This document shows, in pieces, positions 10,358 through 40,664 of a DNA stretch of 64,000 nt. Every line of letters starts with the position of its first letter. The stretch's first letter is position 1. The position numbers and the translations under genes are program-made. The stretch is taken from the NCBI GenBank assembly GCA_041862515.1, contig JBGVTJ010000317.1:1890-65889 (forward strand). The letters are read 5' to 3'. Under the pieces are notes generated by a model that worked only from the letters and a program-made list of their open reading frames with translations, did no database searches and was not told the DNA's origin. The DNA is from Thermodesulfobacteriota bacterium (lineage in GTDB: Bacteria > Desulfobacterota > BSN033 > WVXP01 > G020346125).

Positions 10358-10753
10358 ATGGCCAAAGCTAAGGGTAAAGGAACGAAGAAAAAGAGGGTGA
10401 AGAAGAATGTTCCAAGCGGTATTGCCCATATTCAGGCGACCTTTAACAACACCATTGTGACCATAACCGATCCCGACGGGAACGTTATCTCATGGGCCAG
10501 CGCAGGGACCCAAGGCTTCAAGGGATCGAGGAAAAGTACCCCCTTCGCGGCCCAACTGGCCGCCGGAGATGCCGCGAAGAAGGCAATGGAACACGGTATG
10601 CGGAGTATTGACGTCTACGTAAAGGGGCCTGGAGGGGGGAGGGAGGCCGCATTGAGGTCGCTTCAAGCAGCTGGATTTAAGGTCAATCTCATTAAGGACG
10701 TCACCCCAATTCCCCATAATGGCTGTCGTCCTCCCAAGAGAAGAAGGGTTTAA
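10358..10753 (+). CDS. rpsK: 30S ribosomal protein S11
   Basis: 131 aa S11. Confidence 0.97.
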
Positions 10754-10764
10754 GGAGGTATATC

Positions 10765-11391
10765 TTGGCTCGATATACAGACTCGCAATGTAGGCTATGT
10801 CGGAGGGAAAACCTCAAGCTCTTTCTCAAGGGGGACCGGTGTTATTCCGATAAGTGTGCCATCGACAGGAGGCCCTATCCCCCTGGTCAGCACGGAAAAC
10901 GGAGGCGTGAATTTTCGGAATATGGAAATCAGCTCAGGGAAAAACAGAAGGTTAAGAGGATTTATGGAGTTTTGGAAGGGCAATTCCGCAATTATTTCAA
11001 GAAGGCGGAGCGAAAAAAGGGAATTACGGGCGAAAACTTGCTCATCTTTTTGGAAAGACGGCTGGACAGTGTCATTTATCGCCTCGGTTTTGCCAGTTCC
11101 AGGAATGAGGCCCGGCAACTGGTAAGACATTCCCACTTCTTGGTCAACGATAAGAAGGTGGATATACCCTCATACCTCATTAAACCCGGAGATGTGATTC
11201 GGTTAAGTGATAAGAACAAAAATATCTCCAGAATATCGGAGGCCCTCGAATCCGTTGCTCGACGGGGAGTTCCCCAGTGGCTCGAATTGGATAAGGCTAA
11301 CCTGAGGGGAACGGTGAAGGGCCTTCCCTCGAGAGAAGATCTGACGATGCCCATTCAGGAGCAGCTCATCGTCGAACTCTATTCGAAATAG
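10765..11391 (+). CDS. rpsD: 30S ribosomal protein S4
   Basis: 208 aa S4 with N-terminal CRLCRRE zinc motif. Confidence 0.97.
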
Positions 11392-11490
11392 AAAGTTTAT
11401 GGCGAAATCGGGGGGCCACTATTACCTTCCATCTTATGGAGTGGAAATCACCATTGGCTTTTCCCGTAGCCTCTATTCGAGGGGGAAATC

Positions 11491-12510
11491 ATGCAGAGGA
11501 ATTGGAAGGATCTCATAAAGCCTAAGAAGTTAGAGGTCGAAAGGGAAACCCTGACCCCATTTTATGGGAAATTTTACGCTGAACCTTTTGAGCGTGGATT
11601 TGGCATTACCATAGGCAACTCCCTTAGGCGAATCTTGCTGTCATCTCTTCAGGGAGCCGCCATAACCTCGGTAAATATTGACGGAGTCCTCCATGAATTC
11701 ACCAGTATCCCCGGTGTCACGGAGGATGTTACAGATATTATCCTTAACCTCAAGGAGGTTAAGATTAAACTACACGCCGATGGCCCTAAGACCATACGAA
11801 TTGAAAAGGAAGGAGAAGGGATGGTTAGGGCAGGCGATATTATCACCGATGACACGATCGAGATTATGAACCCAGATCATCCCATTGCTACCTTGTCCCC
11901 TGATGGAAAGTTGAAGATGGAGATGGTGGTTAAGCGGGGGAAGGGATATGTGCCCGCTGAGAGGAACAAGGAGGAGGACCAACCCATTGGCACCATCCCC
12001 ATCGATGCCATATTCTCACCCGTTACCAAGGTAAATTATACGGTTACCAATGCACGGGTAGGGCAGATCACCGATTACGATAAGTTGACCGTGGAGGTGT
12101 GGACCAACGGATGTGTTCGCCCGGAAGATGCCGTTGCCTATGCCGCCAAGATATTGAAGGACCAGCTCAGTATAATGATCAACTTCGAGGAGGAGGATGA
12201 GACAGACGAAGAGGAAATGGAACATGAACAGGAGCAGTTGAACGAAAACCTTTTCAAGAGCGTGGATGAATTGGAGCTTTCAGTCAGGTCTGCCAATTGC
12301 CTCAAACATGCCGACATTAGATTGATCGGAGAACTTGTCCAAAAGACGGAATCGGAGATTCTGGCGACAAAAAACTTCGGGAGGAAATCCCTGAACGAGA
12401 TCAAGGAGATATTGGCGGAAATGGGTCTCAGTTTGGGCATGAAGTTGGAAAATTTCCCTGCTCAACTCGAAGGGAAGGCCGAAGAGAATTCAACAACCCC
12501 GAATGAATAA
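11491..12510 (+). CDS. rpoA: DNA-directed RNA polymerase subunit alpha
   Basis: 339 aa; NTD and CTD ([11 protein letters not shown]) of RpoA. Confidence 0.97.
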
Positions 12511-12524
12511 GGAGAGATTCCATC

Positions 12525-13043
12525 ATGCGACATCAAAAAGCGGGGAGAAAGCTCGGTCGTGACTCAAGCCATAGGATATCCATGTTGAGAAATATGGTTA
12601 CCTCGTTTTTCGGCAAAGAGAGGATAGAGACCACGGATGCCAAGGCAAAGGAAGTTCAAAAACTCGCCGAAAAAATGATTACCCTTGGAAAACGAAGCAG
12701 CCTCCATGCAAGGAGGAATGCCCTGACCGTTATCAAAGACAGGAAAATTGTTAAAAAACTCTTTGAAGATATTGCCCCTCGCTTTCAAGACCGACAGGGG
12801 GGATATACACGAATCTTCAAAGCAGGGCATCGCCCTGGGGATGGGGCTCTTTTGAGTGTGATCGAGTTGACCACCAAAGCGCCTTCCGCCGATAAGGGAA
12901 AGGCGAAGACAAAGAAGAAAGCTTCCACATCCAAATCGGTTTCCAAAAAGAAAGGACCCACCAAAAAATCCTTGCCGAAGGGAGAAAAGGGAAAAAGATT
13001 ATCGAGGGGAAAAGGTCCTGGAGAAGGGGAAGAGACCAAGTAA
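12525..13043 (+). CDS. rplQ: 50S ribosomal protein L17 with ~50-aa lysine-rich C-terminal extension
   Basis: 172 aa; L17 core, then [32 protein letters not shown]... Confidence 0.93.
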
Positions 13044-17166: not shown

Positions 17167-19110
17167 ATGAATCTAAACCTCCGTCGCATGAAATTTCACT
17201 TTACCGTCTCCAGGAAATTGCTCATCTTCTTCGTTATCGTTGCTCTGGTCCCCTTGGGATTCGTCACGGCCGTCACTCTGAGACGTTTACAGGAGACGAT
17301 GAACCTATACAATCAGGCCAAAATCTCCACCAATCTGAAGACGGCCTGGGGGATCTACCAGGCAGAATTGGAAAAGATCGCCGACGGCATCCGGATCCTC
17401 TCCTCCCTGCCGGAGATTAAGCAAAAGATTCTTGACCGGGAGACCAGCGGATTAAGAAAGAAGGTCACCGTGTCCAAGCGAATCCTTAACGTCGACCTGA
17501 TCAATCTGATCGACGTTTTTGGAAATGTCCTCTGCAAGACTAATAACGATCGGGACGAGTATGCCCTCATGCATCTGGTAAGGGAGGCCCTTAAGGGAAA
17601 GGAGATTATCTCCACGGAGATCTTTACCCCCAAGGAGGTGGATATCGAGGATGATACAAGGCAGACCTATGCCCAACAGTTAACCGTTAGGTACCGGGTC
17701 ACTCCAAAAGCGAGGCCCCTCAATATCGAAAAAGGCCTGATGGGCATGGCCTTGGTGGCTTTGATCCCTGTGATGGATGAAGAAAAGGTGATTGGGGTAG
17801 TGATGGGGGCCCAATTTCTGGTGAGAAACTATAAAATCGTGGATAAGATCGTGGAGAGTGTGGGAGAGGGGACAGCCACCATCTTTCAAGACGATCTTCG
17901 GATCTCTACCAATGTCAGGGACTTGGAAGGCCACAGGGCAGTGGGTACTCGGGTATCCGAGGAGGTATACAATCAGGTGATCAAGGAGGGAAAACCCTGG
18001 AATTCCAGGGCATTTGTGGTGACGGACTGGTACATCTCCTCCTATGAACCTATCAAGAACTATTGGGGAGACCGAGTTGGCATCCTCTATGTTGGTACCA
18101 AGGAGGCCTTCTTTACTCCATTGAGCGAATCCATATTGAGGCGTACCTATCTCATCGTGATCGGGGTTCTCCTGTTTACCATTCTCCTTTCCTCGAAGAT
18201 TTCCAAAACCTTTACCCAGCCAATACTGAGCATTATCGCGAAGACCAAGGTCATTGCGCAGGGAAAATTGGATACCAGAATCGACGTCCAGAGCAAGGAT
18301 GAATTGGGGGAACTGGCAGAAGCTCTCAACACCATGACCCAGAAATTACTGGAGAACCGGGATGAGATTCTCACCAAACAGAGAATGGAGAGGGAGCTTG
18401 AGATAGCCTACGACATGCAGAAGAGGCTCCTGATCGAAAAATTTCCCGAGGTGAAGGGTTTAGAAATTGCTGGTGAGTGTATTCCCGCCACAGAAGTGGG
18501 AGGTGATTTCTATGACCTCCTCCGGGTCGGCGATGGCTACAGTACCATCGTCATCGGCGACGTGGCGGGGAAGGGGATGCCCGCGGCTATGTTCATGGGG
18601 ATTGTGAGGAGTATCATCAGAGCCGAGGGTTTTGAGAGCCTCAGTGCCTCCGAGGTCATGAAAAAGGCCAACCGATTGATCTGCTTGGATTCTCAATCCG
18701 GCATGTTCGTTACCATCTTTTATGCCATTTACAGCGAGACGGACAGAACACTGGAATATTGCAACGCTGGACATATCTATCCCATGTTGTACGATCCGGG
18801 GTCCCAAAAATTCACCTATCTCAATACGGAGGGGAGGCCTTTAGGAATAACCACCGAGAGCAATTATGAGGCAAAGAAGCTCATCCTGGAAAGGGACCAG
18901 ATTCTTACCTTGTATACTGACGGCGTGGTAGAGGCCGTTGATGAGAATAACGTCCCCTTCGGAGAAGACAGGTTGAGGGGTTTGATTCGGGAGCATTCTC
19001 AGGCGTCTGCCGTTGACATTGTTCAAAAGCTGAAGGGTGAAGTCGTTCTACACCGGGGGGCCGCCCCACAATTCGACGATATAACTCTCATTGTGGTGAA
19101 GGGCATATGA
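17167..19110 (+). CDS. membrane sensor PP2C-type serine phosphatase (RsbU/SpoIIE-like): TM - extracytoplasmic sensor domain - TM - HAMP - PP2C
   Basis: 647 aa; 2 TM helices flanking ~280-aa periplasmic domain, HAMP (ELGELAEALNTMTQKLLENRDEI), SpoIIE/PP2C motifs (GGDFYDL, GDVAGKGMPAAMFMG, DGVVEA). Confidence 0.85.
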   Translation: MNLNLRRMKFHFTVSRKLLIFFVIVALVPLGFVTAVTLRRLQETMNLYNQAKISTNLKTAWGIYQAELEKIADGIRILSSLPEIKQKILDRETSGLRKKVTVSKRILNVDLINLIDVFGNVLCKTNNDRDEYALMHLVREALKGKEIISTEIFTPKEVDIEDDTRQTYAQQLTVRYRVTPKARPLNIEKGLMGMALVALIPVMDEEKVIGVVMGAQFLVRNYKIVDKIVESVGEGTATIFQDDLRISTNVRDLEGHRAVGTRVSEEVYNQVIKEGKPWNSRAFVVTDWYISSYEPIKNYWGDRVGILYVGTKEAFFTPLSESILRRTYLIVIGVLLFTILLSSKISKTFTQPILSIIAKTKVIAQGKLDTRIDVQSKDELGELAEALNTMTQKLLENRDEILTKQRMERELEIAYDMQKRLLIEKFPEVKGLEIAGECIPATEVGGDFYDLLRVGDGYSTIVIGDVAGKGMPAAMFMGIVRSIIRAEGFESLSASEVMKKANRLICLDSQSGMFVTIFYAIYSETDRTLEYCNAGHIYPMLYDPGSQKFTYLNTEGRPLGITTESNYEAKKLILERDQILTLYTDGVVEAVDENNVPFGEDRLRGLIREHSQASAVDIVQKLKGEVVLHRGAAPQFDDITLIVVKGI

Positions 19111-19156: not shown

Positions 19157-21307
19157 TTACTTCTCTCTTTTCCCCTCTTTTTCCTTTTCTTCCTGTAAGG
19201 CTTTTTTGGCTCGGTCGAGCTTGAATCTCCTTGAGCTATAAGGGGTCATGCGGGAGGTGAGATTCCACGGGCCGTTGAAACTCTTGCTCTTTTCGGCCGA
19301 TTTCTCCTCCATCCTTGCGATCATCTCCTTCTCCCGTCTTTCCTCTTCCGTCTCATCTGAAATGAACTTCCTTCCTTCCATCTCCTCCAACTCCAGCGGG
19401 TGGTGAAGCTTCATCTCTTCTTCCGAGATCTTCCCGGTAATTTTCGCCCAGTTCATGGGATAGACTTCAGGATCGAACATGACGGAATAGAGGTGCCAGA
19501 CGAGGATGGTCATGCTTGCCAGGATAGCCTCATAGAAATGAATTATCCTGGCCACGTTTACACCCCAACTGGGTAAAAAGAGGCTGAAGATCTTAGGATA
19601 CCAAAGGATGAATCCCGTGAGCGTCATGACTAAGGTTCCCCACAGACCCCCAAAGTATTCGATCTTCTCTATATAGCTGTACCGCCCAAATTTCGGTCGT
19701 TTATTTGATATACCGAGATCATATCCGATCAATTTCAAGGCATCCAGGAGGTCTTGGAAGACGGGGATCAGGGCTATCATGTGGCTCCGCCCTCTTTTGG
19801 TGGATATCATGTACAGGACATGGTAGACGCCGAGGAATACTGTTACCACTCCCGCTATCCTGTGGAGCAGACCCCTCATGGGGCTGGCAGGAGGGTGAAA
19901 GAAAATCCCTACCCACCACGCATCGGGATATTTCAGTGCGAACCCCGTGACCACCAAAACGATAAAGCTTACTGCCAGGACCCCATGTTGAACCCTTTCG
20001 TTAACGGTGAGTCTCTCGTAATACTTGACCCCTTCCCGTTTCCTGACTGCCAGCCACTTCCGGATGAAATCAATCCCCCCGTGGAAGTACATGAAGACGA
20101 TCACGAGGATGATCAGGATAATATAAAATACCCTCACCCAGGAAGCTACCTTGTCCCCGATGGGGCCGGCTCCCGTTGACGGCATAAAATGGACGGGAAA
20201 CATGGCGAAGTTCTCCGAAGCACCCGGGTGACAACTTCCACATGTTTTTACAAGGTTGGACTTATGGATTGTCGACTTTGGATCGCTGGATGGCCGTATA
20301 TCGTGAACCCCATGGCAACTGGCGCAGTTGGCCGCAACCACGTCTCCTCCCTTTCTGGCCAAACCGTGGTAACTATCCAAGTAGGACTTGACCTTGATGG
20401 TGGATACCCCGTATTCCCGGGTGATCCACTCCGCTCCGTGGCATTGGGGACAGGTGGTCATGGCAATCTTCTGTTCCGCAATCGAGGAATCCGGGTCAAC
20501 CTTGGCCTTGATGCTGTGGATACCATGGCAATCGGTACAGACGGGGGATCGTCCCACCCCCTTTTTCGCCGCAAGTCCGTGGACACTTCCCTCATATTCT
20601 CGAAAAGCCTCAGGATGACACTTTCCGCAGGTGGAGCAGACATTTTGACGGGAGATGAGGGATTTTGGGTCTAAGGGACTCTTCAGATTGTGGGGGCTGT
20701 GACAGTCGCTACAGGCAGCAGCTCCCTCAATACCCCTCTTAACGGCACGTCCGTGAACGCTTTCCTTGTAAATCATCCCGGGCAATACCCGATCGGGAAT
20801 TCCCCGGTGTTCCTTCACGAAGGCCACATCGGCGTGGCATCGATCACAGGTCTCCTCCAAATTCAGGGGGTTAACCTTTGACATAATGTGGCCTTGGGGG
20901 TAGACGTAATGATAGCCGTGGCAGTCGGGACACCGAGCCGAATCCACCACACCGCGTTTGACGGCCTCTGCATGGAGGCTCCCCTGGTAAACCTTTTCCA
21001 CTTCCTCATGGCATTGGCCGCAGTTGACCGGTTTGAGCCTCGCGGTATGTTCCGCCTCCATATCCTCCAGATCGGTATGGCAACCTACACATGAGACCTC
21101 TGCATGAACGGAGTTCTCCCAGTTCGCCTTGTCCACATATAAGGAAACCTCCCTTCCTGCATCATCAACCTTAACGAGCCCCTTATCGCTATGGCATTCG
21201 AAACAGAGGCTATCCTCCTTTGCCCAGAGATCCCCAGGAGTGAGGAAACATCCAATGGTCAATAACACCAACGTCAGGACCCGAAATTGTGGTTTTGTCC
21301 TTCCCAT
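19157..21307 (-). CDS. CbcL-like inner-membrane quinol oxidoreductase: periplasmic 11-haem cytochrome c fused to HydC/FdnI-type dihaem cytochrome b, with charged cytoplasmic tail
   Basis: 716 aa; signal peptide, 11 CxxCH motifs, then 4-TM His-rich cytochrome b domain, then glutamate/lysine-rich tail ending ...NGPWNLTSRMTPYSSRRFKLDRAKKALQ. Confidence 0.85.
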   Translation of the reverse strand: MGRTKPQFRVLTLVLLTIGCFLTPGDLWAKEDSLCFECHSDKGLVKVDDAGREVSLYVDKANWENSVHAEVSCVGCHTDLEDMEAEHTARLKPVNCGQCHEEVEKVYQGSLHAEAVKRGVVDSARCPDCHGYHYVYPQGHIMSKVNPLNLEETCDRCHADVAFVKEHRGIPDRVLPGMIYKESVHGRAVKRGIEGAAACSDCHSPHNLKSPLDPKSLISRQNVCSTCGKCHPEAFREYEGSVHGLAAKKGVGRSPVCTDCHGIHSIKAKVDPDSSIAEQKIAMTTCPQCHGAEWITREYGVSTIKVKSYLDSYHGLARKGGDVVAANCASCHGVHDIRPSSDPKSTIHKSNLVKTCGSCHPGASENFAMFPVHFMPSTGAGPIGDKVASWVRVFYIILIILVIVFMYFHGGIDFIRKWLAVRKREGVKYYERLTVNERVQHGVLAVSFIVLVVTGFALKYPDAWWVGIFFHPPASPMRGLLHRIAGVVTVFLGVYHVLYMISTKRGRSHMIALIPVFQDLLDALKLIGYDLGISNKRPKFGRYSYIEKIEYFGGLWGTLVMTLTGFILWYPKIFSLFLPSWGVNVARIIHFYEAILASMTILVWHLYSVMFDPEVYPMNWAKITGKISEEEMKLHHPLELEEMEGRKFISDETEEERREKEMIARMEEKSAEKSKSFNGPWNLTSRMTPYSSRRFKLDRAKKALQEEKEKEGKREK

Positions 21308-21599
21308 TCACGATCCCTCCTTTGGGTTTTGTGATTTTTTTAACATAGTATTTTTCAATTGTCAACTAAATTATCAAGTTGTACTTAACGCACCGAAAAC
21401 GGGAATAATCCTTTTAGGGCCTATATTCCCGATTCTTTGGTTCAATCCAAAGCAAATAATTCCTAAGAAACAACATTGTTTATTGGTAGAGAGTAATCAG
21501 TCTCTCTTGTATTCCTCATTTTGGTTAACTATGAAAATGTGACCAAAACATATAAGAGGAAGGGAGTGCTGTGCTGAAGGCTGGTTTTGCAGATTGATC

Positions 21600-23123
21600 C
21601 TACGTGCGGGCTTTGACGTGAGATAGATATTCATGATCGTCCTGGACATTGCTGTTTTTTGGTGATCCTCCAGTTTTTCCCCGGAAGCAGTTAGGGTCTG
21701 GTCCAAAGAGGTCTCCGAAGTAGGTGTAGGCACGTGCCCTGCATCCTCCACAGATATCACGGATTGAACAACGCCCGCACCAGCCTCCGATATTCTCCCT
21801 GTTCCTCAGTTTTATCAAGACAGAGTTTTTAGTCCAGACTTCCGCGAGAGTTTTTTCCCGAATATTTCCGATCTTCAATGGAAGCATGTCGCAGGGCCTG
21901 ATAGAACCATCAGGATCAACCGAAAGGAGAGTGATGCCTGCAGAACACCCCTTGGAGAAAAAAGCGGCTCCCGCCTGGATGCGGCCATAGGGGAGGAGCT
22001 TCATTGCTCCCTTGACTAACTGGTTAAAGGAGAATTCCCTCAGTATTCTATCGGCAACGAGTGGGGCCTGGGGAGCCGTCGTCGATATCTCCAGGGGACT
22101 CTCCCCCAAGATCTTACAGCGGGTTTCAGCCATGGTGAGATGGAGCATCTTCCTTCTTTTTTCACCATCCAGATCCAGTTCAACTTCATTACCTCCGCGT
22201 CCGCTGGGAACAAAGTTGAAGATAATGATCCTCTTGCAGCCCAGTTCCTTGGCCATCTGAACGATTGCGGGGATCTCCCGGAAGTTCGCTTGGGTGGCTG
22301 TGATTGAGATTCCCGTGTCCAGACCTACGTCTACTGCATCTTGAATCCCTGCAATGGCCTTTTTCCAGCATCCCTTTCCGCGAAGGAAATCGTGGATTTC
22401 CGGGGAAACTGAATCGACACTGACTTTGACGTAGTCGAGACCAGCTTCCTTTAAGCAGCCAGCATTTTCGCGGGTAAGGAGGGTGCCATTGGTGATGAGA
22501 ACGGTGTAAAGTCCTTTTTGATGGGCCTCGTGAATCATTTCAGGCAAATCGGGAGCAGTCAGAGGCTCGCCGCCGGCAATCATAAGGGCGTTAGATCCCG
22601 CTTCCGCAACTTGCTGGATTAACTCAAGCTTCTCACCTCGGGTTAGTTCGTCTTTCATGGGGTTTTGATCGGCATCCACATGACAGTAAACACAACGAAG
22701 GTTACAGGATCGAGTAATTTCCCATACAAGGATAACCGGTGCCCCTGATGGCTGTGGAGTGGTTGCCCCGAACCGGCTGAATCCTCGAAGATAATTGAGA
22801 ATCAGATGGCGAGTGTGTTTTTCCGACAAGAGCGCCCTGAATACAGGACGGTCCACTCCGAGCCAGCCTCTCGGTATTTCCAAGAGAAATTGATACGCCA
22901 ACACTTCCAGGTAACAGAGCCAAGGAATAGAAATTTTGTTGTCTCCTTTTTCACCATAGTGAGCCATGGCCCTTTCCAGGTGATTGTCGCGACAGAGAGT
23001 GCATCGAGAGCTGGAGCTTCTCAAAAAGGACCGGAAAAGGGGGAAACCCGCCAACCGCTGTAAGCGTTCAATTGTCCCGAGGGTTGGGGTCGAGTAAAAG
23101 GACCGATTGGAGGATATTTTCAT
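21600..23123 (-). CDS. radical SAM / SPASM-domain enzyme with ~150-aa N-terminal extension (peptide or cofactor maturase, function unknown)
   Basis: 507 aa; CNLRCVYC (Cx3Cx2C) at ~res 155, C-terminal SPASM Cys cluster CGRCSIRDICGGCRARAY; N-terminal extension could be an RRE-like domain. Confidence 0.8.
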   Translation of the reverse strand: MKISSNRSFYSTPTLGTIERLQRLAGFPLFRSFLRSSSSRCTLCRDNHLERAMAHYGEKGDNKISIPWLCYLEVLAYQFLLEIPRGWLGVDRPVFRALLSEKHTRHLILNYLRGFSRFGATTPQPSGAPVILVWEITRSCNLRCVYCHVDADQNPMKDELTRGEKLELIQQVAEAGSNALMIAGGEPLTAPDLPEMIHEAHQKGLYTVLITNGTLLTRENAGCLKEAGLDYVKVSVDSVSPEIHDFLRGKGCWKKAIAGIQDAVDVGLDTGISITATQANFREIPAIVQMAKELGCKRIIIFNFVPSGRGGNEVELDLDGEKRRKMLHLTMAETRCKILGESPLEISTTAPQAPLVADRILREFSFNQLVKGAMKLLPYGRIQAGAAFFSKGCSAGITLLSVDPDGSIRPCDMLPLKIGNIREKTLAEVWTKNSVLIKLRNRENIGGWCGRCSIRDICGGCRARAYTYFGDLFGPDPNCFRGKTGGSPKNSNVQDDHEYLSHVKART

Positions 23124-25161: not shown

Positions 25162-25401
25162 TTATCTCGCCACCCTTACATTGGCCGCCCGGAAACCTTT
25201 AGGCCCCTTCTTCAACTTGAACTCCACATTGATACCGCTTTCCAAGACCTCGAAATCCTCTCCGTGCAGAGCGGAGTGATGGAAGAAGACATCCTCCCCA
25301 TTTTCCGTCTTGATGAAACCGAAACCCCGGAACCGGATAAGGCTCTTTATCTTACCTTTCAAACCTTTCATCTCCTTCCTTAAAGCATCTATTAGCTTCA
25401 A
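25162..25401 (-). CDS. cold-shock domain protein (CspA family)
   Basis: 79 aa; RFRGFGFIKTENGEDVFFHHSAL... CSD RNP motifs; ATGA-coupled to upstream STAS gene. Confidence 0.8.
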   Translation of the reverse strand: MKLIDALRKEMKGLKGKIKSLIRFRGFGFIKTENGEDVFFHHSALHGEDFEVLESGINVEFKLKKGPKGFRAANVRVAR

Positions 25402-25745
25402 TTTTGCCCTTCTAAGAGTCGAACGGCTTCCTTTGGATCATTTGTATGGCAAAATAGATCAAGAGTCTTAGAGGTTCTGAGTACCCTCTTCGCTGTTTCC
25501 TGCAAATTGAGCAGTATCAGATCTCCCCCCTTACTCCTGAGTATATTCGTCAATGAAAGAAGGACCTTAATTCCAGCACTGCTCAAAAAAGTGACACCTG
25601 AGCATTCAAGGATGATCTTTGTAGTTCTTCTCAATATTGGTTCAAGGCAGTCCTCTAGTTGCGACGCATAATAGGAATCTAGTCTTCCCTTTACTTTGAT
25701 GAGGTGAATGTCGTGTTCTTTGAGATATGAAATATCAAGATCCAT
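25398..25745 (-). CDS. second STAS-domain anti-sigma-factor antagonist (paralogue of 16788..17156)
   Basis: 115 aa; HLIKVKGRLDSYYASQLEDCL...GVTFLSSAGIKVLL closely parallels HLVKLEGRLDANFSSQLEDEI...EVTYLSSSGLRVLL. Confidence 0.85.
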   Translation of the reverse strand: MDLDISYLKEHDIHLIKVKGRLDSYYASQLEDCLEPILRRTTKIILECSGVTFLSSAGIKVLLSLTNILRSKGGDLILLNLQETAKRVLRTSKTLDLFCHTNDPKEAVRLLEGQN

Positions 25746-25825: not shown

Positions 25826-26101
25826 CTAAACCTGGCTGTCAAGACCATCAGCCCCCCTCTTTAAACGGTAAATCAGATCGCCAGAGTCATCATCGTTTTC
25901 TGCCCCCATAATTCTTTCTACTAACCCTTTGACGCTGAGATACTCCAGCCTCTCTGAAATTTCTTCTTTAGTTGTGCGCCCCTTCAATGCGTCGTCTTCA
26001 CCACATTCGTACCAGAGCTGCGAAAGGTTCAAATGTTCATAGAGGGAAAGGATCCGTAAGATATTTCGGTCAATTGTGTCTAATCTATTCTTTCTTTCCA
26101 T
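25826..26101 (-). CDS. hypothetical small protein, possible winged-helix regulator
   Basis: 91 aa ORF; DTIDRNILRILSLYEHLNLSQLWYE HTH-like segment; acidic C-terminus. Confidence 0.5.
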   Translation of the reverse strand: MERKNRLDTIDRNILRILSLYEHLNLSQLWYECGEDDALKGRTTKEEISERLEYLSVKGLVERIMGAENDDDSGDLIYRLKRGADGLDSQV

Positions 26102-26526: not shown

Positions 26527-29190
26527 TCACGTGGGAGTCCTCAAGGATGCAAAAAGCAGAAGATAGACTGCACCATAGATACCCAAGAGGATTGCGTGGT
26601 AGGAGAAGATGTGGGAATTCCCCGGGGACCCGGTTGTCTCGCGCTCCATTGCTTGGATCTTGTACAGGATGTAGAGGGCCCATCCGATTCCGATGATGGT
26701 CAAAACAATCTGTACCGCCCATATGAGGTTTATGGTGATGATGGTAGATGAACTCTCTGTCCCGGCCGCAAATGGGATCTTAATCAACTGTAATGTCAGG
26801 CCGCTGCCCCCCGGCACATAGCGAAGATGATTGGCAAAATGACCACAGAGGGCCAGGGGGATAAAGGCGAAGCTGTAGCGGGTAACGTTCGTATCCGTTC
26901 CCGTTTTTTCTGCATCCCGATAGAAGACCAACCGGGGAAACTCCACGAGGAATAAGGAAAAGAAAACGATAATAACGAGGAGGATTGTGTAACCTTGGTC
27001 GGGAGTCAACCTTGGAAAGGGAAAAGCGGACTCAAGGAACAATCCAAATTGGGGCAAATCCGGCAAGATTTCCACAAACAGGAGGCTCGCCAGAAGGAGT
27101 GAAAAGAATGCTCCTCCTTTAACAGGTTTCGTTTGCGTCCATATCTCTTGTCCCGGCACACGCAAATTCAACTGGACCGACCTGTAAGGACAGTTTTGGA
27201 TGCAGTAGGTACAAACCCGGCAGCTCTGGTTATCTTCCAGGAAAAGGGGGTGGCGAAACATAGGGCATCCATAGGTCTTTCCCCCTTTGAAACATTCGTG
27301 GGTTTTGCACTCATTGATACAAACGTTGGTATTAGCTCGCACTTCCAGAATGGAGGCCATCGCATAGATTCCGCACATATTGCCAAGGGCACAGATGTAC
27401 CGACACCAGACTTTTCTTTCGAAGATGAGGCTGAAAATAATAGCTCCTAACGTAATGGATAGTAAGACGAACCCGGTAGGCAAGGGGAATTCACGGGCCC
27501 TCGTCACCTTCTCCAACCAGAGGATAAGCACGAAGAGAAAGGCGGGTAACCAGAGTTCCGTCCGCTTCAAGATTCCCGGGAGTTTCCGTTGAAGGCTGAA
27601 AAACCTCTGGATAAATCCTGAGACGGTCCCGATTGGACAGATAGCGCACCAGCTTCTGGCGGAGAAGAAGGAAAGGAGAAAGAGGCTCGGCCACCAAAGG
27701 GACAAGACCAGGATGTTGCCGATATTGTCCCCGCTTCCCCTCGGACCGAAGAAGAGCGAGTAAGATATGAAAACGAATACCACAACCGTGAAAGCACGGA
27801 CCAGATAGGGGTACATGCTGCTCTGGAAGTATCCTCGAACTAATGTGTTTCTGAGCAGGTTGTACTTTCCCCTTCCCTCAATGGAGGGAAGTCCCAGATA
27901 GATCTGATCGGGTACAATGGTATGCCCCTCGGTCAGGACGACGGCCCGTTCCACCACTTCTTCGAGTTCACCGACATTACCCGGGTATTGGTACGTGAGG
28001 AGGAGGTTCATCGCATCCGTTGAAACCCTTGGAATGGTCTTTCCCATTTGCCGAGCCGATTTTTGGGCGAAATGCTCAACCAATTCGGATATATCCCGTT
28101 TCCGTTTCCGCAAGGGGGGAACTTCGATATCAATACCCTCAAGTTGGTCCAGGAGTCCCTTGGAAAATGTTCCCCGTCTTGCCATTTCGGCGAGATCCAT
28201 CTCTGTAGTCGCGATCACCCGGACATCCGTCGAAAGCGTGTCCCCACCTCCAAGCCGTCGAAACTGTTTCCTCTCCATGAAGTCCGCCAACAGCCTCTGA
28301 GTGTCGTAAGGGAGCCTATCAACATTCTTCATGAGAAGAGTTCCCTTGTCGGCCAATTCCAGATAACCCAATCTCCGAGCGGTTGCCGTGGTAAAAGCCC
28401 CTCTTTCATATCCCACCAGCTCGGATCCCCAGGCCTCCCTCTTCAGCAATTCGCAATTGATGACGATGAATGGCTCCTCTTTTCTCTCCCCCTGATAGTG
28501 GATTGTGCGAGCCATCAATTCCTTGCCCGTTCCCCTCTCCCCCCGAATGAGGACGGGGTAGGAATTTGTGGAGGCCTTGCTCACGAGCTCCAAGACGGAA
28601 CGCATCTTCTTTGAACTGCCCACGGGACGGCTGTACCGAAACTCCTGTTCTTGACGGAGAAATCGGTTGAAGGCGACCTCCTTATCCCTGGCCTCTTCGA
28701 TCTGCTCATTAACCTTACGGATGCGCTGAGAGAGGATCGTAATGAAATGTCGATTAATGCCCGGATTGTCCTGTAATACCTCATCAAAATGCATTTTATA
28801 GAGGACCAGGACCTCCGTATCTTCAACCGCCTTGGTAGTAACTCCGCTCGGCTCGCCAGTTAATAATGACATCTCCCCAAAATAATCTCCAGTATGGTAG
28901 TCGGCGAGGATGATTTCCGCCCCCTCAACGTTGACCTCGATGGCCTGGACGTGCCCCTTCTTGATGATGTAGAGGCAGGCTACAGGAAGGTCCTTTTTGG
29001 TGATAAAAAGACCTTTAGGAATGTCTTCTACGAAAAGCCGTGAGGCTACCTTTTCCCTGGCCTCATGGGATATATCTTTAAATAAGCTAATCCCTTTAAG
29101 GAAATAGGCCAATTCCTTATTCTCGTTTTCCTGTAAGAATCTGTTAGGGGGTTGTTCAGTGGATTCCACCATATACTTATTCCCGAACAA
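26527..29190 (-). CDS. novel fusion: cNMP-binding domain + sigma-54-activator-type AAA+ domain (GAFTTA, Walker B DE->KN, no HTH) + NapH/MauN-type polyferredoxin membrane domain with two [4Fe-4S] motifs
   Basis: 887 aa; GDYFGEMSLLTGEPSGVTTKA (cNMP); GERGTGKE...GYERGAFTTATARRLGYLELADKGTLLMKNVD (EBP AAA+); ~10 TM helices with WCAICP and WCRYIC motifs, CINECKTHEC and CRVCTYCIQNCP ferredoxin motifs; no Fis-type HTH. Confidence 0.8.
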   Translation of the reverse strand: MFGNKYMVESTEQPPNRFLQENENKELAYFLKGISLFKDISHEAREKVASRLFVEDIPKGLFITKKDLPVACLYIIKKGHVQAIEVNVEGAEIILADYHTGDYFGEMSLLTGEPSGVTTKAVEDTEVLVLYKMHFDEVLQDNPGINRHFITILSQRIRKVNEQIEEARDKEVAFNRFLRQEQEFRYSRPVGSSKKMRSVLELVSKASTNSYPVLIRGERGTGKELMARTIHYQGERKEEPFIVINCELLKREAWGSELVGYERGAFTTATARRLGYLELADKGTLLMKNVDRLPYDTQRLLADFMERKQFRRLGGGDTLSTDVRVIATTEMDLAEMARRGTFSKGLLDQLEGIDIEVPPLRKRKRDISELVEHFAQKSARQMGKTIPRVSTDAMNLLLTYQYPGNVGELEEVVERAVVLTEGHTIVPDQIYLGLPSIEGRGKYNLLRNTLVRGYFQSSMYPYLVRAFTVVVFVFISYSLFFGPRGSGDNIGNILVLSLWWPSLFLLSFFSARSWCAICPIGTVSGFIQRFFSLQRKLPGILKRTELWLPAFLFVLILWLEKVTRAREFPLPTGFVLLSITLGAIIFSLIFERKVWCRYICALGNMCGIYAMASILEVRANTNVCINECKTHECFKGGKTYGCPMFRHPLFLEDNQSCRVCTYCIQNCPYRSVQLNLRVPGQEIWTQTKPVKGGAFFSLLLASLLFVEILPDLPQFGLFLESAFPFPRLTPDQGYTILLVIIVFFSLFLVEFPRLVFYRDAEKTGTDTNVTRYSFAFIPLALCGHFANHLRYVPGGSGLTLQLIKIPFAAGTESSSTIITINLIWAVQIVLTIIGIGWALYILYKIQAMERETTGSPGNSHIFSYHAILLGIYGAVYLLLFASLRTPT

Positions 29191-34796: not shown

Positions 34797-36947
34797 TTAT
34801 TCCTTCTTGCCCAGCATAGGTTCTATCTGATCTAGATTCTTCTTGGCAGCCTCGATCAGTTCCGCTGCATACTCCAGGTTATGGACCCCTTTACCCTCTC
34901 CCACCAGACTAATATTGTATTCGGCATCTCCGAACAATTTGGTAAAGGCGAAGGTGTGCTGTCCCCTTTTCTCCAATCTTTGGATATGTTCCTTTATCCT
35001 TTTCAGCTTTGAAGAGGTTCTCTTGAGCAATTCATCCGCCGTTGACTTCCAATCTTCGGCCATCTTCCCGTAACTTTCATCATGGCACTTGATGCAGGTG
35101 GCCCTGATGGCCTTGAAGGATTCCTTCTGTCCTTCAGCGATACTGCGGTGGCAATCCACGCATTCCACCACATCGACTTTGATGCTGGGTAGGTCTTCGA
35201 CACCGATGCCAGTTTTCCCGGAAAAAAGCCTTTTTACGCTCAGGTGACAATCCCCACACGCTACCTTTCCCGCCCCATCGCCATGGTGGCACTCAGCGCA
35301 ATTCTTCAAGTACGTTTTGCCATGGTTCTCCCTGGGGGAGTGACAGTTGCGGCATTGCAAATCCATCCCCATGTGGACATCATGGGGGAATTGGATCTCA
35401 TTGAAGGGAACGGTACGTCGCTCTAACCCCACGTGGCAAAGGCTTGTACACGTATATTCCGTTTTATACTCCTTGAGCTGATACCCGTCCTCGATGAGGG
35501 TCAGGGCCTTTTCCATATTATTGTTGGCATGGTTCAAGAGCTTCAGAGCGTATTCGATGTTGTGAACCCCCTTGCCCATGAGGGAAAACGTATAGTTGTA
35601 CCTGGCCTCGTTGATAAGATTTTGGGCTTTCTTGAAGCGTTGACCCTCCAGCCCCGCTTTACCCGCTTCGTATAGCTTCTTTTGAGCATTAAATATTCGG
35701 CTGTTGACCTCATTCTCCGCCTTAACTAGGAGCTCCTTCCAATGGAAGAGCATCTCGTCGTAACCCTCCCCATGACATCCCACGCAGGACTCGGCTAAGG
35801 CCCTTTCCGAATATTTTGTCGTATATAAAGCCGCCTTGCTCTCCTCTCGGGTTTTGTGGCATCCCACACAATCCACTCTGATGGTGAACATCTTGCTCGG
35901 TGAATCGGTGACACCGATCCCTCCGATTCCCGTGTACATCTCCTTAGGTCCCCTATGCATCTGTTCTATATGACAGTGATTACAACTCTCCGTAAACTTC
36001 GCCATGGTGGGCATTTCCCCGACTTCGTGTCTTATTTCGGTGTGACATCGATAGCATTCGATTTTGTGATCGGTGACGTGCATTCGATGGGTAAATTCCG
36101 ATGTATATTTCGTCGCGAGAAGATTGGGCTCATTATGGCACTCCAGGCACTTATTCTCAGGGACGTGGCCATCGCCTTTATTGTGGCCTACGTGGCACTC
36201 AAGACAGCTCACTCCCCGCTCGATGTATCGCTTGTGGTTGAAGCTTATCCCCTTGACCGAGAGTTCGCCCTTTGGCTGGATATGGCATGCACCACATTCC
36301 GCGCAGGAGAGGCAATCCTCTTCACCCAGAGTTCCTGCCTTATAGAAGTGACAGATGAAGCAGTCCGTTTCCGTAACGGTTAAATGAGCGCCTTGAACGA
36401 TTTGGGCGTGGCACGTAGTACAGCGCAGTTTCTTCCCCCTTCTCAACTCCTCCAGATGTTTTCCGTGGTCAAAGGCCACGTTCTTGAAGACCATTTTTTC
36501 CTTTAAATCCTCACTGCGGTGACATCCCTTCTGAAGACAGCTGGCGTCACTGATCTCCGCATGAGGCATAGTCGGCCCTTTGCCGGTGATAAACATGACC
36601 AGGGAAACCTGTCCATCCTTCCATTTTCCCTTCAAATGGTTGAAAAAGCCGGGTTCATAATGACATCCGGCACAGGGAACGAAGTTGTGGGTGGACGTCT
36701 TCCAGGAATCTACGTACACCTTCATGTTATGGCAGAGATTGCAGAAGGTAGGAGTTTCGGTGAATTTGTACATAGTCCCAGCCAGAAATATCAGGATGAA
36801 AAGACAGATGCCGAGGAACAGGGTGACCCCCTTCTTGTGTTCCTTCGTCCCCCGGTAGGTCTCCTTCCAAAAGGAGATCCAGAAGTTAGAGACGTATTTA
36901 AACAGATCACCTAAGGTCCTAAATCCACGTCTGATTAAGCTTCCCAT
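34797..36947 (-). CDS. NapC/NirT-family membrane-anchored multihaem cytochrome c (~17-18 haem motifs)
   Basis: 716 aa; N-terminal TM then CNLCHNMKVY (NapC/NirT signature), ~16 CxxCH plus CX4CH (CLQKGCH) and CX3CH (CTSLCH) motifs. Confidence 0.85.
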   Translation of the reverse strand: MGSLIRRGFRTLGDLFKYVSNFWISFWKETYRGTKEHKKGVTLFLGICLFILIFLAGTMYKFTETPTFCNLCHNMKVYVDSWKTSTHNFVPCAGCHYEPGFFNHLKGKWKDGQVSLVMFITGKGPTMPHAEISDASCLQKGCHRSEDLKEKMVFKNVAFDHGKHLEELRRGKKLRCTTCHAQIVQGAHLTVTETDCFICHFYKAGTLGEEDCLSCAECGACHIQPKGELSVKGISFNHKRYIERGVSCLECHVGHNKGDGHVPENKCLECHNEPNLLATKYTSEFTHRMHVTDHKIECYRCHTEIRHEVGEMPTMAKFTESCNHCHIEQMHRGPKEMYTGIGGIGVTDSPSKMFTIRVDCVGCHKTREESKAALYTTKYSERALAESCVGCHGEGYDEMLFHWKELLVKAENEVNSRIFNAQKKLYEAGKAGLEGQRFKKAQNLINEARYNYTFSLMGKGVHNIEYALKLLNHANNNMEKALTLIEDGYQLKEYKTEYTCTSLCHVGLERRTVPFNEIQFPHDVHMGMDLQCRNCHSPRENHGKTYLKNCAECHHGDGAGKVACGDCHLSVKRLFSGKTGIGVEDLPSIKVDVVECVDCHRSIAEGQKESFKAIRATCIKCHDESYGKMAEDWKSTADELLKRTSSKLKRIKEHIQRLEKRGQHTFAFTKLFGDAEYNISLVGEGKGVHNLEYAAELIEAAKKNLDQIEPMLGKKE

Positions 36948-37124: not shown

Positions 37125-38732
37125 ATGGAACTGAAATTCGTCGTGTGGCCGTTGGTGGGCTCATTTTTCCTTTTGACTATTGGTTCCCACGCCGCAAAAG
37201 GGGCTCAGCAAAGGCGTGATTTGACCATTGTTTACACCAACGATGTCCTCGGCGAAATTGAGCCCTGTGGATGATTTAAAAACCCCCTTGGCGGTGTCGC
37301 CAAGAAGGCAACGATAATCAAGGGGATGAAGGAGGAGGGGAGAAACCTCCTAGTGGTTGACGCCGGGAATATGCTCTTTCGAAAGCCCCCAACTTCTCAA
37401 GAGCGGAGAAAAGAAGCCCTGTTGAAGGTTAACGTCCTCCTCAGAGCGTATGAAGAGATGGGCTATTCCGCCGTCAACATAGGGGAGAAGGATTTAACCT
37501 TGGGCCTTGGATTCTTGGGTGAGGTAGCGAGAAGAACGAAGTTCCCCTTCATTTCAGCAAACTTGATCGACAAAAAAAGTCGAAAGACCGTTTTCAGGCC
37601 CTTTATAACGGAGGAGATCGCGGGAATAAAGGTCGGCGTAATCGGGTTGATGGGCCGTTGGGTCAATGAGGTGCTTAAGGAAAAAGAGCCATATTTGGAG
37701 GTTCTGGATCCCCTTGACGCGGGTAAACCCTATGTGACGGAGTTACGGAAAACCTGTGACCTCGTCAGCGTGCTATCCCAACTAGGGGAGCGGGGCGATA
37801 GGGAATTAGCCTTGAAGGTCCCTGGCATCGATATTATCGTCGGGGGGAAGCGGGGTAAGAGGATTAGGTATTCGAAGATCAGAGAGACCCTCATGTACCG
37901 CCTGGAACCCCGTGGGGGGTATTTGGGGAAGCTGGATTTATCTCTGGCCCGAAAAGGCAAGCCGCTAAACCTAACCGATTATGAACAAAGGGAGCGCATT
38001 GTTAAGAAAATGGAGACCATCCAGAAGCGATGGATGGAAATAAAGAGCGAAATAGAAGGGGACAGCGGAAAATCTCCCTCCAAGAGGGAGGTGAGAGTGA
38101 AGGAACTGGCTATCCTGGAAAGAAGGGGAATGGAACTCCAACTGCGCCTAGTGGACTTCGACCAGAGGAATCTCTATAAGAATGAGGTCATCCCCATCAA
38201 GTTGGCCATCCCAGATGATCCGGTTATCGGCGAGATGATTGATGGATACGGGATAGAGGTGGCAAAGCTCTATGGAATTGAGCGAACCCTTGAGAGAGGC
38301 CCGGGAAAACCCCCATCCGATGCTCAAATTTTGGCCGGCATCTCGAAGAGCAGTTCTTACCAGGGGGCGATCTCGTGTAAAAAATGCCACAGACGAAATT
38401 TCGAAGCCTGGTCCACTACCGAACATGCCAAAGCGACCCAGACGATATCTGAGGCTTTCAAAAAGGGGCGGCCGTTGGAGGATTGTCTCATCTGCCATAC
38501 GACCGGTTATGGGGATATCAGGGAATATCGGTTTGTACAAGAGGTTCCCCTTTATCTTCGGGGGGTACAGTGCGAGGCTTGCCACGGGGTGGGAAAAGGG
38601 CACCCGGGGTTTGGAGCCAAATTCAGGAGGGTCACCTTAGGGGTCTGCCGCAACTGCCATACGAAGGATCAATCTCCTGCCTTTCACTACAAGAGCTATC
38701 TGCTCCGAATCGGCTGCACCATTCGGAAATGA
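37125..38732 (+). CDS. candidate selenoprotein: signal peptide + degenerate metallophosphatase/5'-nucleotidase-like domain with Cys-Gly-Sec (TGA at 37272..37274) + C-terminal tetrahaem cytochrome c
   Basis: ATG 37125 with AGGAG RBS; MELKFVVWPLVGSFFLLTIGSHAAKG...LTIVYTNDVLGEIEPCG-TGA-FKNPLGGVAKKATIIKG... continuous in the same frame into the 37326..38732 ORF; SECIS-like hairpin 12 nt after TGA; CKKCH, CLICH, CEACH, CRNCH at C-terminus. Confidence 0.6.
37287..37304 (+). ncRNA. SECIS-like stem-loop (CUUGGCG-GUGU-CGCCAAG) 12 nt downstream of in-frame UGA
   Basis: Perfect 7-bp stem, GU-containing tetraloop, spacing similar to E. coli fdhF SECIS (~11 nt). Confidence 0.5.
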
Positions 38733-38741: not shown

Positions 38742-40664
38742 TTATCTCAGAAATGCCCATATGATGAGCAGCAGGGCGATCAACCCTACAAATATCGCTC
38801 CGAAACCGGAGAGCTGCCCCCAGAGGTAGGTAAGAATGGCGGGGTGTTTGGCCTTAAAGGTTTCGAGTTTTCCCTCGGCGACTAGCCTATCATAGTGCCC
38901 CGGCCGATCATCGATGAATTCCACCTTGGGAAATCTCCCGGTGAAGATGCCCACGTCCAGAGGAAATTTCTCGGGTCTGAAATGGACGTTGAAAAAATGA
39001 GCGGTAAAAACATAACCGGCAGCCAGGAGGGCCTCGTCTGAATGGATGATATAGGCAATATTAAAGACCCATCCGGGGAGAAAGATCGAGAAGAAGTCGG
39101 GGAACCACAACATCAAGCCTGTAAGCCCTATGGCTAACATCCCCCAAAAAACCGCCAGGAAATCGAATTTCTCCCAGTAAGTCCACCGATCGAACCGAGG
39201 TTTGGGGCCCTTTCCGAAAAACCACTTGAACATTCCCTTCATATCCTTCACGTCCTGCCATCTCGGTGCCAGGGAGTCTGGACCGAAGAGTCTCTGTAAA
39301 GGATTCCCCTTCACATCCTTCCGGTAGAAAGTGAAATAAACGATATTCACCAAAACTGCGCCGAAGTAGGCGAAGGTAATGACCGCGCAGAATCGGTGAA
39401 TATCGCCAGCGATACGGGCTCCGCCAAACAACTTCACCAGCTCCTTGGCCCAGAGTGAGTGAGCGAATTTCAGGGGAAGGCCCGTCAAGACCAAGAGGAT
39501 AAAGGTTACCATCATGATGAAGTGGATGACGATGTCGAAGTTATCGAACCTCTGATAAATCTCCCCCGATTTTTCCACGTAAGGTGGCAGGTATTCCCCT
39601 GCTGCCCACATCTTCCTCTTCTCCCGATAGGCCCGTTGCCACCACATGATGGAGTGAAACCACCAGAAGGCAAAAACGGAAAGCAGTAAGGCTGTCATGA
39701 AGACGAAGGCAGAATAGAGGAAGGGATAGTTCTCCTTGTCGTAGTGATTGGCATGGGCATACCACTGCACGAAATTTGCATTGGCCTTGGTGTGACATTT
39801 GCCACAGGTTTCGACAAGCCTATTCTTGGAAATGGTCGAACTGGGATTGTCGGATTTCAAGGCGCTGTGGTAGCCATGGCAATCGGCACAACCCGCCACA
39901 AAGATAGGATACCCCAGGTATTCTACCTTGCCGTGATAGCTCTCCTCGTAGGTTTCGTTTGCGATGAGCACGACCTTATTGCGCCTCATCATCTCCTCAT
40001 CGGCATGGCATTTCTGGCAAACCGCCGTATGGAAGTTGCGCCGAAATTCGATGTTCTCAGGCTCCTCCCCCGACAGGATGGGGATTTTATGAAGCCCGTG
40101 ACAATCCGAGCAGTCCGCCGAGTCCCTGTTCCCAGCATAGACCGCTTCCCCGTGGATGCTTTCCGAATACCCATCATCATCGTGGCATATCGTGCACGTT
40201 TTGATTACCCTAGCTTTGTCATCCCCCCAGGGTGTGATTTCATGGATCTTCACATGGCAGTCCGGACACCTCACATCATTGATGAAGTGGGAGCTGGCGT
40301 AGTGTTCGGCCCCCTCGACTTTGTGGCACCGATGACAGGTGACCGACTCGGCTTGGATTCTTCCCCCCTTTGCCGTGTGTTCCTCGATATCAGTGATATC
40401 CCAGTGGCAGCTATTACAGGAATTGGCCCCGTGGACCGACTTGGCGAATTTGGTCTCATCGACAGTTTCATGGCACTCCAGGCATTTTGAGTTGTCGATA
40501 CATTCCAAACAGTACTCCCGCCCCCTGATTTTAAACTTCTTCTTGGCCAGCTCAAGTTCCTCATGGAATTTCAATTGCTGAGCGGAACTGGTCACGAGAA
40601 GGGAGAAAAGGGATAGGAAGAGGAGGAGAGATGAAAGAAAAGAAATCTTCAGTCTCGATCGCAT
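38742..40664 (-). CDS. CbcL-like inner-membrane quinol oxidoreductase: 9-haem cytochrome c + HydC/FdnI-type cytochrome b
   Basis: 640 aa; signal peptide; 9 CxxCH; C-terminal 4-5 TM His-containing cytochrome b domain. Confidence 0.85.
   Translation of the reverse strand: MRSRLKISFLSSLLLFLSLFSLLVTSSAQQLKFHEELELAKKKFKIRGREYCLECIDNSKCLECHETVDETKFAKSVHGANSCNSCHWDITDIEEHTAKGGRIQAESVTCHRCHKVEGAEHYASSHFINDVRCPDCHVKIHEITPWGDDKARVIKTCTICHDDDGYSESIHGEAVYAGNRDSADCSDCHGLHKIPILSGEEPENIEFRRNFHTAVCQKCHADEEMMRRNKVVLIANETYEESYHGKVEYLGYPIFVAGCADCHGYHSALKSDNPSSTISKNRLVETCGKCHTKANANFVQWYAHANHYDKENYPFLYSAFVFMTALLLSVFAFWWFHSIMWWQRAYREKRKMWAAGEYLPPYVEKSGEIYQRFDNFDIVIHFIMMVTFILLVLTGLPLKFAHSLWAKELVKLFGGARIAGDIHRFCAVITFAYFGAVLVNIVYFTFYRKDVKGNPLQRLFGPDSLAPRWQDVKDMKGMFKWFFGKGPKPRFDRWTYWEKFDFLAVFWGMLAIGLTGLMLWFPDFFSIFLPGWVFNIAYIIHSDEALLAAGYVFTAHFFNVHFRPEKFPLDVGIFTGRFPKVEFIDDRPGHYDRLVAEGKLETFKAKHPAILTYLWGQLSGFGAIFVGLIALLLIIWAFLR

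Follow-up and report, generated by a model that had tools for sequence, protein, structure and literature searches.

What work is done by a protein that joins a cyclic nucleotide monophosphate (cNMP)-type sensor, the AAA+ domain of a sigma-54 enhancer-binding protein (EBP) and a polyferredoxin membrane domain in a single chain? The question is posed by one gene in a 64-kb stretch of DNA from a Thermodesulfobacteriota bacterium (contig JBGVTJ010000317.1, positions 1,890 to 65,889; hereafter the window). Our analysis suggests that its product, the fusion protein, most probably acts as a switch for a membrane redox function and not for genes. The gene lies on the minus strand, a detail unstated in the initial annotation, which had been made from the sequence without database searches; all features of the gene given below are on that strand. 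Its open reading frame (ORF) runs uninterrupted over 26527–29190, with 887 codons from a TTG at 29190 and a stop codon at 26527–26529. Because homologues measure 876–882 amino acids, an ATG at 29172, six codons into the frame, is likely to be the true start, giving a product of 881 residues. A Pfam search found cNMP_binding, Sigma54_activat, AAA_lid_14 and Fer4_5 in that order, which confirmed the four-part fusion (cNMP domain, EBP-type AAA+ domain, lid, polyferredoxin membrane domain) described in the initial annotation. The motifs quoted there (GERGTGKE, GAFTTA, LLMKNV, WCAICP, WCRYIC, CINECKTHEC...CP and CRVCTYCIQNCP) were all found as well. Fold searches bore out the domain assignments too, and the anatomy is statistically secure.

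One trivial explanation is an assembly or frameshift artefact that joins two genes, a case the initial annotation had itself raised. In a search of ~5.8 billion proteins, we found ~68 full-length homologues with the same Pfam architecture and 31–89% identity, falling into three tiers (76–89%, 56–59% and 31–36%). Scanning a single genome for each GTDB species, we met full-length fusions in ~40 species-level genomes, which represent at least seven phyla. Since the identical full-length architecture recurs in dozens of independent assemblies (NCBI, JGI, ENA, Logan), an artefact is excluded, its residual probability being negligible. The same homologues overturn the claim that the fusion is unprecedented. 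The carriers, metagenome-assembled and single-amplified genomes (MAGs and SAGs), are labelled Desulfobulbales, Desulfocapsaceae, Desulfomonile, Desulfobacterales, Scalindua/Brocadiaceae, Nitrospirota/Thermodesulfovibrio, Armatimonadetes, Acidobacteriota/Thermoanaerobaculia, Bacillota and Chondromyces, and the closest named relative (89% identity) belongs to an uncultured 'Proteobacteria bacterium' MAG. Names deposited in GenBank and JGI include 'cyclic nucleotide-binding domain-containing protein', 'sigma 54-interacting transcriptional regulator' and 'transcriptional regulator with AAA-type ATPase domain/polyferredoxin'. Our literature search found no paper describing this architecture, only background on CcoG, on NapH/NosR/RdhC and on atypical EBPs. 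The family is uncharacterised and systematically mis-named, and consists of known parts newly combined.

Does the AAA+ domain still work as a motor? EBP-type AAA+ domains are the textbook motors of sigma-54 transcription. That of the fusion protein matches Sigma54_activat over residues 191–355 (E = 1.5e-45; core alpha/beta subdomain, 28126–28620), is followed by a lid subdomain (27901–28110; AAA_lid_14, PF25601, residues 361–430, E = 5.8e-21), and is ~35–40% identical to active EBPs over core and lid. We aligned 81 family members to NtrC1 and counted the conservation of each motif. The Walker A P-loop, GERGTGKE (28519–28542), is intact, with its lysine conserved in 80 of the 81. Walker B (28321–28338) reads LLMKNV in place of hhhhDE. 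Its aspartate is found in 0/81 members, being replaced by Lys (73), Arg (6) or Asn (2), and its glutamate likewise in 0/81 (replaced by Asn in 64, Asp in 10 and Gly in 5); the Asp-Glu pair is also missing from all 84 AAA+ domains of a wider representative set. Sensor I Asn is conserved in just two members (the fusion protein reads ATTE) and sensor II Arg in nine (Gly in the fusion protein, GNVGELE). The first arginine finger is conserved in none and the second is replaced too, FSKGLLDQL standing where the motif FRxDLYYRL is expected. The L1 loop, GAFTTA (28384–28401), takes the place of the sigma-54-contacting GAFTGA, which occurs in exact form in 0/81 members; across the family the loop decays from GAF-ATA to GAI-PSA and is absent from distant members. 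The degenerate loop and Walker B that had been noted in this one protein are therefore family-wide, and the losses are wider than was noted. Because the P-loop is selectively retained while the catalytic and sigma-54-contact residues are gone, we infer a family-wide pseudo-ATPase, predicted to bind nucleotide without hydrolysing it.

These losses bear directly on whether the fusion protein could be a genuine sigma-54 activator, anchored in the membrane and working without DNA binding like EBPs that lack a helix-turn-helix (HTH). Strong Sigma54_activat matches favour this idea, as does the name 'sigma 54-interacting transcriptional regulator' that NCBI gives to some members. It is opposed by the family-wide loss of GAFTGA, the Walker B Asp-Glu, both arginine fingers and sensor I Asn, and by the NCBIfam EBP equivalogs, whose matches are confined to the AAA+ core with all scores far under the cut-offs. 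A scan of the 64-kb window for -24/-12 promoters, a check that the initial annotation had proposed, gave a single one-mismatch match, as chance predicts, and no rpoN or second EBP gene is present among the annotated ORFs of the window. As the initial annotation had stated, there is no C-terminal Fis-type HTH: HTH_8 (PF02954) was found neither in the fusion protein nor in homologues P0001–P0068, whereas canonical EBPs recovered by the identical search (P0069 onward) do carry it. In the fusion protein we found no HTH of any kind; its C-terminus is the membrane module. Because the defining features of bacterial EBPs were tested for and are lacking, the fusion protein is, judged by its sequence, not a sigma-54 activator, in accord with the earlier view that it is no conventional one, and the chance that it activates sigma-54 transcription in some unconventional way is very slight.

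For comparison, we considered EBPs that have themselves diverged. VpsR, the nearest precedent, is an atypical EBP that lacks GAFTGA, carries Asn-Asp in Walker B and has no detectable ATPase activity, and VpsR, TyrR, NtrX, HupR, PhhR and HsfA all keep their DNA-binding domains (PMC6158489). Like these proteins, the fusion protein has an EBP-derived AAA+ domain without GAFTGA, a degenerate ATPase site and an N-terminal sensor for control, and VpsR, NtrX and FleQ are among the best structural matches. Unlike them, it bears a membrane iron-sulfur (Fe-S) module with 8–9 transmembrane (TM) helices where atypical EBPs have a C-terminal HTH and act in sigma-70-dependent transcription, and its family has degenerated further, having also lost the arginine fingers, sensor I and sensor II. 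With canonical EBPs (NtrC1, PspF, NifA, FlrC) it shares the AAA+ fold, the layout of sensor, linker and AAA+ domain, and an NtrC1-like long linker helix, but not GAFTGA, the catalytic residues or the HTH. In a neighbour-joining tree, all 116 membrane-linked AAA+ domains separated from 52 canonical EBP domains in 100/100 bootstraps, against a canonical outgroup that was narrow (mean identity 0.74). This separation is consistent with a single origin of the pseudo-AAA+ clade.

What, then, replaces the DNA-binding domain? The C-terminal part of the protein (26530–27867) matches Fer4_5 at residues 495–538 and over a second stretch (E = 3.5e-7). Two AlphaFold models, one of the full-length protein and one of the C-terminal part alone (pTM 0.83), gave 8–9 TM helices, fewer than the ~10 of the initial annotation; the topology is N-in. 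In the 881-residue numbering the modelled helices span 456–475, 484–504, 541–556, 563–583, 685–705, 724–750, 757–785, 816–847 and 853–876, of which TM7 (757–785) is weakly hydrophobic. Two cysteine motifs lie at the membrane interface. The first, WCAICP (27634–27651), sits at the cytoplasmic end of TM2 and is of the CX2CP type, not CX3CP as had been supposed; the second, WCRYIC (27391–27408), sits at the cytoplasmic end of TM4 and is a CX3C followed by Ala in the fusion protein and by Pro in distant members. Between TM4 and TM5 a ferredoxin-like insert (27133–27348, residues 609–680) holds two four-cysteine motifs, CX3CX4CX8CP, with a conserved histidine, and CX2CX2CX3CP (sequences CINECKTHEC...CP and CRVCTYCIQNCP). 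The insert matches Fer4_10 weakly in Pfam and aligns with the Fe-S subunit ArrB. In an alignment of 40 sequences reaching down to ~29% identity, 16 cysteines of the module are invariant: two in each interface motif (Cys509 and Cys512; Cys590 and Cys594) and four in each motif of the insert, CX3CX4CX8CP and CX2CX2CX3C. Both interface motifs and the insert are modelled on the cytoplasmic face, beside the AAA+ domain, a placement that follows from the modelled helices and from the AAA+ domain being necessarily cytoplasmic. A count of positively charged residues (Lys plus Arg, 15 inside versus 6 outside) agrees with it.

The nearest named family of this module is NapH/MauN. NapH, NosR and RdhC share a membrane core of four TM helices and two cysteine motifs, and this core has been proposed to interact with quinol (PMC5928378). 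The fusion module resembles NapH/MauN in its four-TM core, in interface cysteine motifs on the cytoplasmic side and in two [4Fe-4S]-type motifs. Scores for named families were nevertheless low: 28.7 bits for NapH/MauN (TIGR02163) against a cut-off of 213, 23.8 versus 234 for NapH (PRK09477), and 19.3 versus 1000 for the NosR equivalog. Further, where NapH and MauN have two CX3CP motifs, the fusion protein has a CX2CP and a CX3C-Ala; relative to NapH it also has 4–5 additional C-terminal TM helices, one non-canonical Fe-S motif (CX3CX4CX8CP), ~435 cytoplasmic sensor and AAA+ residues fused N-terminally, and no NapG/NapA context. Unlike NosR, NirI and RdhC, which carry a periplasmic flavin mononucleotide (FMN)-binding domain ahead of the core, it has no Pfam match to FMN_bind. 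None of the window ORFs scanned with Pfam is a nap or mau gene, and no such gene recurs in the 42 family loci that we compared with the window by clustering neighbouring ORFs. Neither by sequence nor by fold did we find a solved structural relative of the module. Given a score far under the cut-off, a different context and the extra helices, we assign the module on sequence grounds to a distinct family, a superfamily relative of NapH and not a member of the NapH family. The earlier label 'NapH-type' is thus an overstatement, which holds for the superfamily relationship only.

A related possibility is that the fusion protein is a regulated reductase resembling CcoG, with its activity tuned by the sensor and AAA+ domains. 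CcoG, which works as a cupric reductase, belongs to the Fer4_5 membrane proteins and has a pair of [4Fe-4S]-type motifs on its cytoplasmic side (PMC8267372). The fusion protein likewise has Fer4_5 and cytoplasm-facing [4Fe-4S] motifs, and its window is rich in multihaem cytochromes and encodes DsbD. Unlike CcoG, FixG and RdxA, it gave no Pfam or NCBIfam match to CcoG/FixG or to FixG_C even at permissive E-values (up to 1–10), NapH/MauN being nearest instead. The ccoNOQP/ccoHIS context is also absent, with no cco genes near the fusion gene in the window. We consider a CcoG-like reductase improbable.

At the other end of the protein, the sensor domain (28765–29022) matches cNMP_binding over residues 57–142 (E = 2.6e-17). 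It has the eight-stranded beta-barrel of the CRP/FNR and PKA/PKG domains and the Gly-Glu scaffold of their phosphate-binding cassette, FGE(M/L)(S/A)LL...P (cassette GEMSLLTGEPSGVT). Unlike those domains, it has Ser in place of the Arg that contacts the cyclic phosphate (P-S-G-V aligned with P-R-A-A), and its output is neither an HTH, a kinase nor a channel. Across the family the pocket is strongly conserved, though without the canonical Arg, which is present in 1 of 79 members. The initial description of a second-messenger sensor is therefore right as to the cNMP fold; as to the messenger, the loss of the cyclic-phosphate Arg from 78/79 members makes cNMP binding doubtful. In three anammox loci (Scalindua/Brocadiaceae), a CHASE2 domain-containing class III adenylate/guanylate cyclase of 750–804 amino acids is encoded directly upstream, on the strand of the family gene (L002, 49–2301; L003, 2294–4708; L026, 5590–8004). 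As evidence of cAMP or cGMP binding this arrangement is at most circumstantial, and exactly the family members at these loci carry Cys-Cys at the position of the cNMP-binding Arg. Between sensor and AAA+ domain, the AlphaFold model has a long linker helix (28642–28764; residues 137–177 of the 881-residue form), which aligns with the receiver-AAA+ linker of NtrC1.

A cNMP-binding domain joined to TM helices also raises the question of antiphage defence, with a Pycsar-like effector triggered by a neighbouring cyclase. The N-terminal domain does match the cNMP domains of PycTIR and related effectors (E = 7e-9 to 2e-8), and the cyclase upstream at L026, one of the three anammox loci, matches PycC (E = 1.6e-30). 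These matches, however, reflect generic homology among cNMP domains and class III cyclases. The cyclases bear CHASE2 sensors typical of signalling enzymes, no cyclase gene is adjacent in the window or found elsewhere in it, and the neighbourhoods show housekeeping synteny, suggestive of vertical inheritance within lineages, and not defence islands. Moreover, 16 invariant Fe-S/Cys ligands and variants with receiver, GAF and FHA domains are ill-suited to an abortive-infection pore. A role of this kind is very unlikely.

Which end of the protein receives the signal and which delivers the output? We searched exhaustively for relatives of the membrane module, with clustering at 50% identity, and obtained 353 representatives at E ≤ 1e-30 and 884 at E ≤ 1e-10. 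The architectures of the best 150 were tallied. Among these, 71 had cNMP, AAA+ and membrane domains, 40 had AAA+ and membrane domains with an N-terminus that was different, truncated or undetected, one had cNMP and membrane domains with no AAA+ domain detected, and 38 were stand-alone membrane modules of ~430–480 amino acids. Complete genes for several of the stand-alone modules lie mid-contig on long contigs; no consistent functional neighbour was found for them. Alternative inputs on the pseudo-AAA+/membrane core comprise FHA plus GAF, HisKA plus receiver, GAF, and cNMP with one or two GAF domains. These alternative N-termini are classic EBP inputs, and in one-component systems, as in EBPs, signals usually pass from a variable N-terminus to a constant C-terminus. 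Because sensors vary on a constant core and the membrane module occurs alone, these data argue for the N-terminus as input and for the membrane Fe-S module as regulated output.

Several members of the wider family stood out in this survey. P0169, P0216 and P0233 (~980–1060 amino acids) have HisKA and a receiver before the pseudo-AAA+/membrane core, with no HATPase_c detected, an unusual phosphorelay-type input. A Scalinduaceae MAG (L084) encodes two paralogues of 861 and 898 amino acids (5970–8555 and 10223–12919), ~1.7 kb apart, which adjoin genes for a Rieske protein, an FAD/NAD(P) oxidoreductase with Fe-S domains and a cytochrome b. SAG AM-311-B10 likewise has two family copies (L014 and L029).

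From the observed architecture, the motif losses and their conservation across the family, the sensor swapping, the autonomous membrane module and its topology, we infer an oligomeric switch, a direction of signal flow and a quinone link. The variable N-terminal sensor would take the input, by ligand binding or, in sister architectures, by phosphorylation, and this would shift the assembly or conformation of an AAA+ module that binds ATP and does not hydrolyse it. In true EBPs, the sensor controls the transition from dimer to hexamer. Here, the change in the AAA+ module would turn electron transfer by the membrane Fe-S module on or off, with the quinone pool, or some other acceptor on the membrane side, exchanging electrons with a partner in the cytoplasm. 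We propose such a signal-gated membrane redox device, in which the sensor acts through a hydrolysis-dead AAA+ domain to control Fe-S/quinone-side electron transfer, tentatively, rating its chances at a little under even. Possible too, with rather lower confidence, is the evolutionary account in which a clade of EBP AAA+ domains was exapted from transcription as a hydrolysis-dead assembly switch that couples interchangeable sensors (cNMP-like, GAF, FHA, phospho-receiver) to a membrane Fe-S oxidoreductase.

The signal might instead flow the other way. The Fe-S module would then sense the redox state of the quinone pool or of a reductant in the cytoplasm, with the dead AAA+ domain as the output, a membrane-tethered anti-activator that sequesters or poisons canonical EBP hexamers or another partner. 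At ~35–40% identity to active EBPs, mixed oligomers are conceivable; the first descriptions of NosR and RdhC, which have the same membrane core, cast them as regulators (PMC5928378); and canonical EBP genes lie near the family gene at some loci. Reversed flow would, however, give the protein two sensors and no recognisable output surface, GAFTGA being lost. The swapping of N-terminal sensors suits an N-terminal input, the membrane module seems to work without an AAA+ domain in many genomes, the window contains neither a second EBP gene nor rpoN, and no partner is conserved across the family loci. Overall, we regard reversed flow as unlikely, though less so than the other alternatives.

A signal-gated redox device draws further support from adjacent genes, which, where informative, are signalling or redox genes: the CHASE2 cyclase, a Ser/Thr kinase and the Rieske/cytochrome b cluster. 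Elsewhere the neighbours are housekeeping genes. Some points weigh against it. No operon partner is conserved, no neighbour being common to more than 6/42 loci, and gene context therefore points to no electron donor or acceptor. The sensor lacks the canonical cNMP-binding Arg, and cNMP is therefore a doubtful ligand. For the membrane module there is no solved structural relative, and its profile-level resemblance to NapH is weak, which makes the quinone-linked role an analogy. Finally, the test for a single origin of the pseudo-AAA+ clade rested on a narrow outgroup.

The setting of the gene is that of an ordinary chromosome, with SecY, RpoA, GlyS, FtsK, PPDK and DsbD encoded in the window and no matches in Rfam and tRNA scans of it. 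The gene looks monocistronic, judging from the ~350 bp and ~425 bp of intergenic DNA that flank it upstream and downstream. Recurrent neighbours across the 42 loci (hisD, rsmG, icd, prs) reflect lineage synteny. The window itself is, as close kinship would predict, syntenic with two close relatives, L081 (85% identity) and L001 (59%), which share, in order, multihaem cytochromes, Acs, TauE, the fusion gene, an ORF of ~90 amino acids, STAS, CBS, a radical SAM protein and a SpoIIE phosphatase. The small ORF directly downstream of the fusion gene (25826–26101, minus strand) encodes 91 amino acids with no Pfam match and has counterparts of 89 amino acids at the same position in L081 and of 111 amino acids nearby in L001. 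A promoter-like site at 26297–26269 suggests that it has a separate transcript. We considered this ORF and the downstream STAS gene as a DNA-binding partner acting in trans, and rejected the pair because it is conserved in the close relatives L001 and L081 only.

Partner-switching genes flank the fusion gene, namely a Cache/HAMP-SpoIIE (PP2C) phosphatase at 17167–19110 (plus strand) and a STAS anti-sigma-antagonist-like protein at 25398–25745 (minus strand); L081 has a second STAS and a HATPase_c_2/HTH protein at 19996–22649. A radical SAM/SPASM protein of 507 amino acids is encoded at 21600–23123 (minus strand). Genes of this type occur within ~5 kb of the family gene in 6/42 loci (window, L004, L007, L008, L022 and L042), a recurrence that is probably lineage synteny.

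The window also encodes multihaem cytochromes. Two paralogues, of 716 and 640 amino acids (19157–21307 and 38742–40664, both minus strand), have an N-terminal multihaem c domain (c7/c3/NrfB-like) and a C-terminal cytochrome b (Ni_hydr_CYTB), and L001 and L035 each have a homologue of this combination close to the family gene. A further protein of 716 amino acids (34797–36947, minus strand) combines NapC/NirT with an MtrC/MtrF-like part, and a c554-like protein is encoded at 37326–38732 (plus strand). This cluster suggests a capacity for extracellular or quinol-linked electron transfer. At the sequence level, the first ~13 kb of the window (1–13000), which span secY and rpoA on the plus strand, show strong positive GC skew (~0.2) and AT skew on that strand; the skew falls and reverses sign farther along.

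The family now comprises hundreds of representatives at 50% identity from at least seven phyla, with at least four kinds of sensor input. Its recognition would correct a systematic mis-annotation, that of 'sigma 54-interacting transcriptional regulator'. The coupling of a conserved pseudo-ATPase to a membrane Fe-S module would widen the functional range of the EBP lineage, and a naturally regulated variant could help to define the role of the poorly understood NapH/NosR/RdhC-type membrane module. If the proposed device is real, these proteins would make up a one-component system of a new class, with post-translational gating of electron flow, respiratory or quinone-linked, in anaerobes that include sulfate reducers and anammox bacteria. 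They would also hint at a direct, post-translational way for signals to control electron transport in environmentally important anaerobes, including anammox Planctomycetota, Desulfobulbales, Desulfomonile and Nitrospirota.

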